This document shows positions 13,801 through 16,892 of a DNA stretch of 24,809 nt, one piece after another. The translations under genes and the position numbers were made by a program. Under the pieces are notes generated by a model. The model was not told the DNA's origin, searched no databases, and saw only the letters and a program-made list of their open reading frames with translations. Numbering within the stretch: position 1 is the first letter of the stretch; every line of letters begins with the position of its first letter. Source of the stretch: an uncultured Elusimicrobia bacterium (GTDB taxonomy: Bacteria > Elusimicrobiota > Elusimicrobia > UBA1565); NCBI GenBank assembly GCA_964359165.1, contig CAYHRV010000017.1, positions 1 to 24,809 of the forward strand, read 5' to 3'.

Positions 13801-13818
13801 CGCAACGCCTTGGCCGGG
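13801..13818 (-). promoter_or_regulatory. Candidate sigma-54 (-24/-12) promoter for the Cyc2-like operon
   Basis: Minus strand reads cccGGCCAaggcgTTGCg. GG and GC have the canonical spacing of TGGCAC-N5-TTGCW. It lies ~60 nt upstream of the ATG at 13742, and a sigma-54 activator gene is adjacent. Confidence 0.45.
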
Positions 13819-13904
13819 AAGACCGCGCATTAAATAAGGATTAAACGCGGATGAAGCCCGCCGTTTTCAACCGGCTTGGAAACGGATTCAGGTCTATTGG
13901 AAGA

Positions 13905-15326
13905 TCAGCGGAAGGATTGGGGGCTTAGGGCGTGCTTCTTGAGATACCAATAGAAGTTGCTCAGCGGCAGACCGCAGTCCTCGGCCGCGGCCTTGGCGTT
14001 GCCGTGCCGGCGCCTGAGCGCGGCTTCGAGGAACTCCTTCTCGAAGGAGTCGAGATGCCTCTTTTTCATGGAGGCGAAACCTTCCTCCTTCGTGGAGGCT
14101 GGGTCTCCAGAAGCGGCCGCCTCCGCGGGACCCTCGCCTTCCGGCCGGGAAAGGGCGGCGGCCACCAGGAATTCCGGCAGGTCGGACGCGGCAAGGGTCT
14201 CCCCCTCGCAGAGCAGGACCGATTTCTTGAGCACATTGATCAGTTCGCGTATGTTCCCGGGCCAGGCATAGTGCGTGAGGATGTCGGCGGCGGGCTCCTC
14301 GATGCGCGACACGGCCCTGCCCATCTCGCGGCAGATGCGCGGAAGGTAATGGCGCGCGAGCAGGGGGATGTCCTCGCTCCGCTCCCTGAGCGAAGGCAGG
14401 CGCAGGGAGATCACGTTGAGGCGGTAATAGAGGTCATCGCGGAATCTGCCGGCCTTGACCTCCGCTTCCACGTCCCTATTGGTGGCCGCGATGATGCGCA
14501 AGTCCACGCCGCGCATCTCCCGGCCTCCCACCCGCCGGATCTGCCGTTCCTGCAGAGCGCGCAGGAGCTTGGCCTGCAGGGAGAGAGGAAGCTCGCAGAC
14601 CTCATCGAGGAAGAAGGTGCCGCGGTCGGCCAGCTCCATGAGCCCCGGCGAGGCCCGGGACGCGTCGGTGAAGGCTCCGCGTTCATGGCCGAAGAACTCG
14701 TTTTCCAGGAGATTCTCCGGGATGGCGCCGCAGTCCACCGGGACGAAGTGGCCGCTCCGATTGGACCGGGCGTGGAGCCGGCGGGCGATGAGCTCCTTCC
14801 CGGTGCCGGACTCTCCCAGGATGAACACGTCGGCGGGGGTGGCGGCGACCTTGTCGGCCAGCTCGACGACCTTGAGCAGGGAGGGAGCTTTTCCCACGAT
14901 CTCCACGGGGACGTATTCCCGCGCCACGTGCCTGGCCAGAAGGCGGTTCTCGTCCTTAAGGTGCCGCTCCTCGAGGGCGCGGCGGATGCGGGAGACGAGG
15001 TCGGCGGGATGAAAGGGCTTGAGCACGAAATCCATGGCCCCGGCCCGCAGGGCTTCCAGCGCCGAATCGAACTCCGGGAAGGCCGTGATCATGATGACGG
15101 GCAGGGACGGATCCGAGGATTTCGCGGCCTTGAGCAGTTCCAATCCGGTGAGGCCCGGCATCCTGATGTCGGCCACGAGGAGGTCGAAACTCTCTTCCTT
15201 GACGCGCTCCAGCGCCGCATCCCCCCGCTGTTCCGGGAAGACGCGCCAACCCTCGTGGGAGAGGGCCGCGCCGCAGGTCGAAAGCATGTCGGCTTCGTCG
15301 TCGACGAGCAGGATCTTGGCGCTCAT
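13905..15326 (-). CDS. Sigma-54-dependent response regulator (NtrC family: REC + AAA+ + Fis-type HTH)
   Basis: 473 aa. REC motifs (LLVDDE, DLLVADIRMPGLTG), Walker A GESGTGKE, ENEFFGHERGAFTDA (a variant of GAFTGA), arginine finger region, C-terminal HTH. Confidence 0.9.
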   Translation of the reverse strand: MSAKILLVDDEADMLSTCGAALSHEGWRVFPEQRGDAALERVKEESFDLLVADIRMPGLTGLELLKAAKSSDPSLPVIMITAFPEFDSALEALRAGAMDFVLKPFHPADLVSRIRRALEERHLKDENRLLARHVAREYVPVEIVGKAPSLLKVVELADKVAATPADVFILGESGTGKELIARRLHARSNRSGHFVPVDCGAIPENLLENEFFGHERGAFTDASRASPGLMELADRGTFFLDEVCELPLSLQAKLLRALQERQIRRVGGREMRGVDLRIIAATNRDVEAEVKAGRFRDDLYYRLNVISLRLPSLRERSEDIPLLARHYLPRICREMGRAVSRIEEPAADILTHYAWPGNIRELINVLKKSVLLCEGETLAASDLPEFLVAAALSRPEGEGPAEAAASGDPASTKEEGFASMKKRHLDSFEKEFLEAALRRRHGNAKAAAEDCGLPLSNFYWYLKKHALSPQSFR

Positions 15327-16861
15327 GGGGCCGGGAAACGGACCGTGAAGCTGCTGCCGCGGCCCAGGGAGCTCTCGACTCCTATGTCCCCGCCCAGGGA
15401 TTTCGCCAGGGCCAGGCTGATGGGCAGGCCCAGCCCCGTGCCCCGTTCCAGGGACTTCGTGGTATGGAAAGGCGTGAACATCCTAGAGAGCTCCTCCGGG
15501 GGGATTCCCGGACCCGTGTCCGAGACCCGGACATGCACCCAGCCGCCGGCGCAGCCGCTCTCCACGCGAAGCAATCCTCCGTTGGGCATGGCGTCCACGG
15601 CGTTGTTGAGGAGATTGAGGAAGATATGGATCAAGTCGTTGTATCGGGAGGGAAGCGCGGGCAAGGAGTCGGCTAGGCCCTCCTGCAAGGCGACGCCGGC
15701 GCCGGAGATGCGCCCCGAGAGGAGATACACCGCTTCCGACAAAGGCTCATTGAGGTTCACCGGGGTCTTGGGCTGGAGCTGGGGCTTGGAGAGGTTGAGG
15801 AGGCTGCGGACCACGTCCGCCACGCGCGCCGACTGCCGGTCCACGATCTCAAGGGTTTCCCGGAGGAACTCGGGGGCGGCATACTCAGGCGAGCCGGACC
15901 TGGCCAATTTCATGCGGGTGGAGATGATCCCGATCGGATTATTGACCTCATGGGCGACGTATGCAACGAGTTGGCCGAGGGCGCCGAGCCTTTCGGTCTG
16001 GAGCAGGCGGCGGTGGTTCTCCCGCAGGCGCCCCATGATGGCGGTTGTAAAATGCGTGGTCCAGCCCAGGAGCAGCAGGAAAGACCCGCAGACCCCGAGC
16101 ACGAAGGAAAGCTGGTGGGATGCGTGAGAGGCGCCGTGGCCGTGATGCGCGTGGGGGAAGACGGCCAGGGTATAATGGGAGAGGAGCCGGGAATATTCGC
16201 CGAAGGCCAGGAGAAGGAAAAGGGCCGCGATGAGGGCCGCGACGCGCCAAGCGTCCTCCCTCGATAGGAGTATCCCGGAGATGATGACATGGAATACGTA
16301 GATGGAGAACAGGGAGTTCTCAAGCCCTCCGGAGAAGTGGAGCAGGTGCGTGAGGATGAGCACGTCGGTGGCGATGAGCCAGAGCAGATAGGAGCGGATG
16401 TTCAGGAACCCGCCCCTCGACCGGTTGAACGCCGTATTGATCAGCCACAGTACGGCGACCCCCAGCCATAGCGGAAGACTTACCTCCGCGGGGAGCAGAT
16501 GCAGGATGTGCTGGGAAAGGAATACCGCGACCGCCGTGAGGATGGCGGCCAGCCAGCGCAGTTGGATGAACCACGCGATGTGCTCCCCGATGCCCTCGGA
16601 GACCGAGACGACCCCGAGTTCCCTGGGAAAGATGCGCTCCCTCCGGCGCTTAAGCAGGAAAATGACCAGAGCGGAGGCCGTCACGGTCGAGCCCATGCCG
16701 CGCAGGAGATGGAGCCTATGGAGGAGCGCGGGGTCCGCGTCGGGGAGCCACAGGCGTTCCGCGACCTCGTATCCACCGAAGACCAGCGCGATGACGATCA
16801 CGACCGCGAAGGGCAATTTCCAATCGTCCAGAAAAGACGATCGGCCGATCTCTTGGTTCAT
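15323..16861 (-). CDS. Membrane sensor histidine kinase
   Basis: 512 aa. Multiple N-terminal TM helices, H-box AYVAHEVNNPIGII, N/G boxes (NLLNNAVDA, GTGLGL). ATGA-type overlap with the downstream regulator. Confidence 0.85.
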   Translation of the reverse strand: MNQEIGRSSFLDDWKLPFAVVIVIALVFGGYEVAERLWLPDADPALLHRLHLLRGMGSTVTASALVIFLLKRRRERIFPRELGVVSVSEGIGEHIAWFIQLRWLAAILTAVAVFLSQHILHLLPAEVSLPLWLGVAVLWLINTAFNRSRGGFLNIRSYLLWLIATDVLILTHLLHFSGGLENSLFSIYVFHVIISGILLSREDAWRVAALIAALFLLLAFGEYSRLLSHYTLAVFPHAHHGHGASHASHQLSFVLGVCGSFLLLLGWTTHFTTAIMGRLRENHRRLLQTERLGALGQLVAYVAHEVNNPIGIISTRMKLARSGSPEYAAPEFLRETLEIVDRQSARVADVVRSLLNLSKPQLQPKTPVNLNEPLSEAVYLLSGRISGAGVALQEGLADSLPALPSRYNDLIHIFLNLLNNAVDAMPNGGLLRVESGCAGGWVHVRVSDTGPGIPPEELSRMFTPFHTTKSLERGTGLGLPISLALAKSLGGDIGVESSLGRGSSFTVRFPAP

Positions 16862-16876
16862 GTGATCGCCCGCTTT

Positions 16877-16892
16877 GGCAACATCTTGGCCA
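16877..16892 (-). promoter_or_regulatory. Candidate sigma-54 (-24/-12) promoter for the kinase-regulator operon
   Basis: Minus strand reads TGGCCAagatgTTGCC with exact -24/-12 spacing. It lies only ~16 nt upstream of the kinase ATG, giving a near-leaderless transcript. Same GGCCA-N5-TTGC pattern as the Cyc2 promoter. Confidence 0.45.

Follow-up and report, generated by a model that had tools for sequence, protein, structure and literature searches.

Two-component systems that pair a histidine kinase with a response regulator composed of receiver (REC), AAA+ and helix-turn-helix (HTH) domains are well known, as in NtrB/NtrC-glnAp2, DctB/DctD-dctA, ZraS/ZraR and AtoS/AtoC. In NtrBC-type systems, tandem dyads are located approximately 80–110 bp upstream of a -24/-12 promoter and the target operon adjoins the regulator genes. 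The same pairing and arrangement were found in a 24,809-nt stretch of an uncultured groundwater Elusimicrobia genome (contig CAYHRV010000017.1, GCA_964359165.1; hereafter, the window). In this window, genes for a sensor kinase and an NtrC-family regulator precede a putative operon that encodes a Cyc2-like cytochrome-porin and an alternative complex III-like (ACIII) set of proteins, all on the minus strand. Two candidate sigma-54 promoters were analyzed: site A (P_cyc), ahead of the Cyc2-like gene, and site B (P_tcs), ahead of the kinase gene (Table 1). In contrast to NtrBC-type systems, the loop of the regulator that contacts sigma-54 reads GAFTDA or GAYTDA, the dyad is TTCCAA-N4/5-TTGGAA, and the proposed target, in Elusimicrobia, is an operon for respiratory cytochromes and ACIII. 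The TTGC of the -12 region is moreover preceded by an invariant G, and the -24 region reads TGGCC/A in place of TGGCAC.

A redox-type two-component system beside a cyc2-containing operon has a precedent in the RegB/RegA system (PrrB/PrrA, ActS/ActR) of Acidithiobacillus ferrooxidans (PMC5506826). Like RegB, the kinase in the window has a sensor with multiple transmembrane (TM) segments; it carries a SGGLENSLF loop similar to the quinone-binding loop of RegB. Its partner, unlike RegA, which has no AAA+ domain, is a sigma-54-dependent enhancer-binding protein (EBP). In A. ferrooxidans, the cyc2-containing rus operon has promoters of the sigma-70 type and is controlled by RegBA; the operons that depend on sigma-54 are tet and cyd (PMC5506826). 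These two operons and the EBP regulons of Desulfovibrio vulgaris have in common with the present locus that the gene for an EBP response regulator stands directly upstream of an operon for energy metabolism, which has a -24/-12 promoter together with a predicted bending site; their target genes are different (PMC5506826, PMC4641369). The papers found contained no account of a Cyc2/ACIII cluster under sigma-54 control, nor of a cyc2 regulator in iron oxidizers that are neutrophilic.

Comparison with related loci suggested, with a probability of roughly 75%, that the window carries a self-contained, enhancer-dependent sigma-54 regulatory module, in which kinase, regulator, dyads and P_cyc would act on the Cyc2-like/ACIII operon and P_tcs would serve the kinase and regulator genes.

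Table 1. Coordinates of the genes and candidate regulatory elements in the window.
Feature	Position	Strand	Remarks
Sensor histidine kinase, 6-TM sensor domain	15323..16861	-	HisKA, HATPase_c, weak 6TM_PilS match
NtrC-family enhancer-binding response regulator	13905..15326	-	REC + Sigma54_activat + AAA-lid + HTH_8
Cyc2-like fused monohaem cytochrome-porin, gene 1 of the putative operon	12465..13742	-	Signal peptide, CSQCH, 16 predicted beta-strands, C-terminal F
Remaining putative operon genes	5588..12263	-	Domain content; order kept in L001-L013
Site A (P_cyc), candidate -24/-12 element CGGCCAAGGCGTTGCG	13801..13816	-	GG 13815/13814, GC 13803/13802
Site B (P_tcs), sigma-54-type -24/-12 element TGGCCAAGATGTTGCC	16877..16892	-	GG 16891/16890, GC 16879/16878
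UAS1, distal dyad TTCCAATAGACCTGAAT	13886..13902	-	Weak 3' half-site; centre ~-104 from predicted transcription start
UAS2, proximal dyad TTCCAA-GCCGG-TTGAAA	13865..13881	-	Centre ~-83
A+T-rich patch GTTTAATCCTTATTTAATG	13828..13846	-	Between enhancer and -24 element, ~-56 to -38
Leader hairpin CGCACCC-GCG-GGGTGCG	13764..13780	-	In predicted 5' untranslated region of Cyc2-like operon
Third sigma-54-type element (P_nuoE) TTTGGCGGTTTTGTTGCTT	5543..5561	-	16 nt before NuoE-like ATG (5529), just outside the strain-variable island

Probable promoter and enhancer elements ahead of the Cyc2-like gene

An initial annotation of the window had described two GGCCA-N5-TTGC sites with exact -24/-12 spacing, one about 60 nt upstream of the Cyc2-like gene and the other about 16 nt upstream of the kinase ATG, and these observations were borne out. 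The core sequences, GGCCAAGGCGTTGC for site A (13802-13815, minus strand) and GGCCAAGATGTTGC for site B (16878-16891, minus strand), both have a distance of exactly 10 nt between GG and GC, with TTGC at -12. The -12 GC of site A lies 60 nt ahead of the Cyc2-like ATG, and a predicted transcription start at approximately 13790 would yield a 48-nt leader. For site B, the -12 C at 16878 is located 17 nt ahead of the kinase ATG and a predicted start at approximately 16866 would leave a leader of only 5 nt. This ATG (16861) is the most upstream start possible in frame and aligns with the starts of the orthologues in three other loci (L001, L008, and L013).

A set of 5.8 billion proteins contained 19 homologues of the Cyc2-like protein, and the six with a source name were all from Elusimicrobia metagenome-assembled genomes (MAGs; 33-73% identity). 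Contigs were fetched for 11 of the homologues. In seven loci (the window, L001, L003, L005, L006, L008, and L013), the cytochrome operon is immediately preceded by genes for a kinase and a sigma-54 regulator; an extra receiver gene separates regulator and operon in L003, and cytochrome-maturation genes do so in L006. Four loci were used as negative controls, of which L011 and L012 carry an OmpR-type system instead, and L009 and L010 have no adjacent system. On the coding strand, a GG-N8-TTGC element (ATGC in L006) was present 82-111 nt past the regulator stop codon in 7/7 loci, at distances of 90 nt in the window and L001, 89 nt in L005 and 95 nt in L008. When the spacer was varied from 4 to 12, N8 alone gave 7/7, and 0 hits were obtained on the opposite strand.

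Tandem TTCCAA-N4/5-TTGGAA dyads occur directly behind the regulator stop codon in 7/7 loci, with centres 20-22 bp apart. UAS1 of the window begins 2 nt past that stop codon. UAS2, a likely binding site of the regulator, is the sole dyad with two or fewer mismatches in the 24.8 kb of the window, and across 145 kb of loci dyads with 0-1 mismatches are nearly confined to the region behind the regulator gene. UAS2 lies 58-61 bp from the GG in five loci; in the remaining two, at 49 and 71.5 bp, it is closer or farther by about one helical turn. An unbiased k-mer count recovered TTTCCAAG in 7/7 regions, TTGGAA in 6/7, and GTTGCC in 5/7, compared with usually 3 and rarely 4-5 in shuffled sequences. 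In a MAFFT alignment, these three blocks were the only conserved columns and the surrounding intergenic DNA had diverged. The A+T-rich patch between enhancer and -24 element may, by inference only, bend the DNA or bind IHF/HU; L001, L005, L006, and L013 have a TAAA(T/C)C-like patch at a similar position.

Neither dyads nor a plausible -24/-12 element were found in control loci L009-L012. L011 holds one GG-N8-ATGC, from which the predicted start would fall after its Shine-Dalgarno sequence. Metagenome-wide, at least 120 chance matches to TTCCAA-N4-TTGGAA-N35-65-GGC-N7-GTTGC were obtained, with a tandem dyad or an upstream EBP in none among the matches listed. Orthologous conservation, the tandem enhancer behind the regulator gene, co-occurrence with the regulator and helical phasing support site A as a sigma-54-type promoter of the Cyc2-like/ACIII operon that is driven by the neighbouring NtrC-family regulator.

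Scores of the individual sites were less clear-cut. An independent position weight matrix (PWM), built from 87 curated D. vulgaris sigma-54 promoters (PMC4641369, Additional file 6), was used to score 49,582 window positions. The initial annotation had pointed to such scoring for both sites. Site B scored 9.6 (rank 6; 5th percentile of true sites) and site A, on this matrix from another lineage, -4.2 (rank 660). Judged by sequence alone, site A does not rise above chance, and site B is a borderline case. Neither has two or fewer mismatches from TGGCAC-N5-TTGCW; each has 3-4. The window contains three copies of GGCCA-N5-TTGC versus 0.3 expected, with a pattern that was defined post hoc from the sites themselves, and 572 copies of GG-N10-GC versus 583 expected. 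A lineage PWM was derived from 11 sites of other genomes only, with the window sites excluded, and compared with 30 shuffled windows. On this matrix, site B ranked first in the window with a score of 20.55 (shuffle maximum 17.7), and site A ranked ninth with 8.5. Sixteen lineage sites gave the consensus TGGC[C/A][A/G]-N3-[T/C]GTTGC, and the low scores of these sites on the Desulfovibrio matrix are due to the invariant G before TTGC.

The remaining GGCCA-N5-TTGC copy (15963-15976) was discarded as a promoter candidate: it falls within the kinase gene, where it codes for the conserved H-box residues G-Q-L-V-A. At an apparently equivalent place, the sequence of L003 is GGCCATCTGGTTGC (G-H-L-V-A). 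A hexamer scan found no sigma-70-like promoter on the minus strand near site A or site B; the single one reported, on the plus strand, serves a divergent FtsJ/TlyA-like gene. A terminator scan reported no terminator-like site between the regulator and the Cyc2-like gene. The predicted leader hairpin of the Cyc2-like operon folded no better than shuffled sequences (z = -0.9).

Regulator, kinase and proposed activation of P_cyc

As the initial annotation had proposed, the gene between the two sites encodes an NtrC-family activator. Its product contains a Response_reg domain (residues 5-115), Sigma54_activat (PF00158, residues 143-308, E=9e-65), AAA_lid_14, and HTH_8 (residues 425-459; 19.7 bits, below the Pfam cut-off of 22 bits). 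It combines the defining features of NtrC-family EBPs: a REC domain with an acceptor Asp, an AAA+ domain and a C-terminal Fis-type HTH. The best NCBIfam matches were AtoC (419 bits) and NtrC (389 bits); since no equivalog cut-off was reached, the regulator is not considered an orthologue of any named system. The L1 loop, which contacts sigma-54, reads GAFTDA in the window, and six orthologues have GAYTDA there. Both are listed among the natural variants expected to be active, and DVU2106, which carries GAFTDA, has assigned sigma-54 targets (PMC4641369).

The kinase matched the ActS/PrrB/RegB family NF033792 over residues 98-497 with 101 bits, versus a cut-off of 350. Its loop, SGGLENPLF in the orthologues and SGGLENSLF, with S for P, in the window, is one residue longer than the quinone-binding loop GGXXNPF that RegB has between TM3 and TM4 (PMC3000548). 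Because the sensor is RegB-like, the redox state of the quinone pool might be guessed to be its signal, which is only a guess. The membrane domain (residues about 98-260) contains many invariant His residues, in HLLHFSGG, FHVI, HYT..FPH, and HA.H.

Sequences, conservation, geometry, co-occurrence with the regulator and domain content were observed directly; from these, we infer binding, sigma-54 dependence, start sites, operon extent and signal. In the most likely scenario, kinase and NtrC-type activator, enhancer and sigma-54 promoter together would switch on a putative iron-oxidation operon. The membrane kinase would phosphorylate the NtrC-family regulator, which would bind the two TTCCAA-N4/5-TTGGAA dyads centred at approximately -104 and -83. 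A bend in the A+T-rich patch would help the regulator to reach sigma-54 RNA polymerase in a closed complex at P_cyc, which the regulator would then open by ATP hydrolysis and its GAFTDA loop. The resulting transcript would run from approximately 13790 through the Cyc2-like, periplasmic cytochrome, Band-7 and ACIII genes to 5588. The kinase-regulator operon would be transcribed from its own sigma-54-type P_tcs, with a leader of about 5 nt.

Several observations weigh against this reading. Site A is poor on any PWM (-4.2 and 8.5, both inside the shuffle range), so that its support is positional only, and, except for P_tcs of L003 (14.9), no lineage site exceeds the lower quartile (14.4) of true Desulfovibrio sites. 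Dyad spacers are N5 in the window and L003 and N4 in the other loci, an unusual difference if one dimeric protein binds them all, and UAS1 of the window has a weak second half-site. No rpoN gene was found in the 24.8 kb of the window, to which the search was confined, and Elusimicrobium minutum, the sole cultured member of the phylum found analyzed in the literature, has neither sigma-54 nor EBPs (PMC3162934). The presence of EBPs and conserved promoters suggests an rpoN gene in groundwater Elusimicrobia. The reading gains some support from L006, in which a divergent sigma-54 homologue of 380 amino acids (166-1308) is encoded between kinase and regulator, with Sigma54_DBD, an RpoN-box-like SRRSIAQYR and a region-I-like N-terminus. 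This protein scored 58 bits on TIGR02395, below its cut-off, and has three homologues in the 5.8 billion proteins, of which the one with a source name came from Chloroflexi.

The low scores would also be explained if both sites were chance occurrences of GG-N10-GC in G+C-rich DNA, with the operons transcribed from sigma-70-type promoters and the regulator acting elsewhere. Judged without comparison between loci, GG-N10-GC is not enriched, each site differs from the consensus at three or four positions and site A scores at background; this too counts against sigma-54 control, as does the use of sigma-70 promoters by the cyc2-containing rus operon of A. ferrooxidans (PMC5506826). Against chance stand the orthologous position and the fixed spacing and strand in 7/7 (P_cyc) and 6/6 (P_tcs) loci despite diverged flanks. 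With a background rate of 0.31 per kb-strand, a chance product of about 5e-9 was obtained for the six TTGC sites; as the loci share descent, this value makes them look more independent than they are. The elements furthermore co-occur with the regulator, the tandem enhancer adjoins, and the scan found no sigma-70-like hexamer pair on the coding strand, which makes a chance origin highly improbable. It is likewise very unlikely that the TTCCAA dyads are RNA-level elements, that is, terminator or processing hairpins that end the kinase-regulator transcript, rather than enhancers. They do start right behind the regulator stop codon and can form hairpins, and a separation of the two transcripts would make sense. 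However, the stems are short (6-7 bp) and A/U-rich without a consistent U-run, and the terminator scan reported nothing at the dyads. The half-site sequence itself, and not just its pairing, is conserved, with no compensatory changes, and two copies two helical turns apart and in phase with the -24 element fit DNA binding.

The probable kinase promoter and a third sigma-54-type element

In 6/6 loci (the window, L001, L003, L005, L008, and L013), a P_tcs-type element stands ahead of the first kinase-operon gene, with predicted leaders of 5-18 nt. This first gene is the kinase gene in the window, L001 and L013, and tatA in L003, L005, and L008. Conservation in all six loci and the top position on the lineage PWM support site B as a promoter of the sigma-54 type, and the near-leaderless kinase transcript suggested by the initial annotation holds geometrically. 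In the three loci with tatA (at L003 2174, L005 2358, and L008 2117), the order behind the sigma-54-type promoter is tatA-(small gene)-kinase-regulator; tatA is missing from the start of the kinase operon in the other three. The molybdopterin subunit of the ACIII set bears a Tat signal. L003 also has a divergent GG-N8-TTGC element, TAGGCTGTTTTGTTGCAT (2103-2120, minus strand), on the opposite strand and back to back with P_tcs, which faces a 121-aa open reading frame (called in L004) and YHS-domain genes.

The initial annotation had assigned both sites to the regulator and suggested that the two-component system is autoregulated. Tandem dyads directly after the regulator gene agree with this assignment for site A. 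For site B, enhancer-like palindromes were not consistently found. In the window, L001, L005, and L013, the DNA upstream of P_tcs contained no TTCCAA-type dyad with two or fewer mismatches. The only such dyad of L003 (two mismatches, at 2449) sits downstream of P_tcs, within the operon. L008 alone has a one-mismatch dyad, CTCCAAAAAATTGGAA, approximately 50 bp upstream of the P_tcs GG, and the six upstream regions share no common motif. With an enhancer-like dyad in 1/6 loci only, autoregulation is unsupported.

As a conserved sigma-54-type element, P_tcs would require some EBP. The sole such protein encoded nearby is the system's own regulator, and P_tcs lies inside the island, described below, that moves as one. 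Together with the dyad in L008, these observations would fit positive autoregulation of the kind found in glnALG/ntrBC or zraSR. The lack of a suitable upstream dyad in the window, L001, L003, L005, and L013 and of a shared motif argues against activation of P_tcs by the regulator, as does the survival of P_nuoE, introduced below, at a locus without the regulator. Autoregulation is therefore considered doubtful.

The description of site A and site B as a pair was also incomplete: both are present, but the window holds a third, equally good site. P_nuoE ranked second on the lineage PWM (20.33) and third on the Desulfovibrio PWM (10.07), equalling site B, and precedes genes for NuoE-, NuoF-, 2Fe-2S/4Fe-4S-, and glutamate-synthase-like proteins. 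The element is kept in L015 (about 2366-2384) and L016 (about 2940-2957), not in L017. L015 has no kinase-regulator module at this locus, so that other activators probably serve such promoters in the lineage. Near P_nuoE, the end of the NrfD gene (5585-5611, minus strand; ATCCAATAGAAATAATCGCCTGAATGG) shares TCCAATAGA and CCTGAAT with UAS1, with the two blocks separated by an 8-nt insertion. This segment lies approximately 30-55 nt upstream of the P_nuoE GG, and its likeness to UAS1 may be due to chance or mark a degenerate regulator site.

The putative Cyc2-like/ACIII operon as part of a strain-variable island

The Cyc2-like protein (425 amino acids) has a signal peptide, a single CSQCH and a C-terminal ...VELGF, and matched no Pfam or NCBIfam family. 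Its structure model (pLDDT 69.5, with a low-confidence haem region) shows 16 long strands. One CXXCH and a barrel of about 16 strands thus lend architectural support to the Cyc2-like label. With Cyc2 of neutrophilic and acidophilic Fe(II) oxidizers, the protein shares, by architecture alone, the N-terminal signal, single CXXCH, approximately 16 strands and terminal aromatic residue. Unlike Cyc2 of these organisms, it lacks a Pfam or NCBIfam match and belongs to a family of only 19 members. Cyc2-like proteins have previously been reported from Elusimicrobia MAGs (PMC8357290).

Downstream, the putative operon continues with genes for a small monohaem cytochrome, a cytochrome c, a Band-7/SPFH protein, and a multihaem c7-type ActA-like protein, and ends with molybdopterin-type ActB1, iron-sulphur ActB2, and NrfD-type ActC. 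By domain content, the c7-type cytochrome and the molybdopterin, iron-sulphur and NrfD subunits make up the ACIII-like set. The genes are co-directional, with overlaps or gaps of 0-29 nt except for a structured spacer of about 200 nt behind the Cyc2-like gene, and the order from cytochromes to ACIII is identical in the L001-L013 contigs. This spacer (12264-12464, minus strand), which follows the stop codon of the Cyc2-like gene and spans 200 nt, has an unusual degree of structure (z = -3.7) and opens with a 15-bp G+C hairpin, GGACCGCCGCGGGCG...CGCCCGCGGCGGTCC, without a U-run. It may be an mRNA-stabilizing or attenuating element that sets the ratio of Cyc2 to downstream gene products. A comparable gap of about 150-200 nt is also present in L001, L003, and L006. 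No Rfam families were found in the window.

L015 belongs to a close relative (96% amino acid identity in the NuoE-like protein, 86-94% nucleotide identity in the flanks). It is collinear with window positions 19354-16997 and then resumes at window position 5559 (L015 2331-2365), which identifies window positions 5560-16996 (11.4 kb) as a strain-variable island. This island holds P_tcs, kinase, regulator, enhancer, P_cyc and the Cyc2-like/ACIII operon. In L015, the FtsJ/TlyA-like gene directly abuts the NuoE-like promoter, and the right breakpoint of the island coincides exactly with the -24 element of P_nuoE. A search for terminal repeats on either side of the island found none. It is conceivable, if rather unlikely, that the island is a portable, self-regulating module for extracellular electron uptake, composed of a RegB-like sensor of the quinone pool, a sigma-54 EBP, a near-leaderless promoter and an enhancer-dependent P_cyc. 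If so, putative iron oxidation would be a horizontally exchangeable, redox-gated and sigma-54-dependent trait in groundwater Elusimicrobia, with L006 carrying its own compact sigma-54 homologue.

The overall design of two-component EBP, tandem dyads, bend and -24/-12 promoter is textbook knowledge, and since the mechanism itself is familiar, the advance is incremental. What is new is its occurrence in Elusimicrobia, a Cyc2-like/ACIII operon as its target, the particular dyad and the lineage -24/-12 consensus. With the consensus TGGC[C/A]-N5-GTTGC, an enhancer dyad and a cognate regulator, the locus offers the first concrete cis-regulatory model found for Elusimicrobia. Sigma-54 regulons in MAGs of groundwater Elusimicrobia can be mapped with the lineage PWM. 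As the host is uncultured, promoter, enhancer and regulator form a compact set of parts that could be rebuilt in Escherichia coli to probe the signal. For the organism, the model would place a putative operon for Fe(II) oxidation and ACIII respiration under sigma-54 control that depends on a signal.

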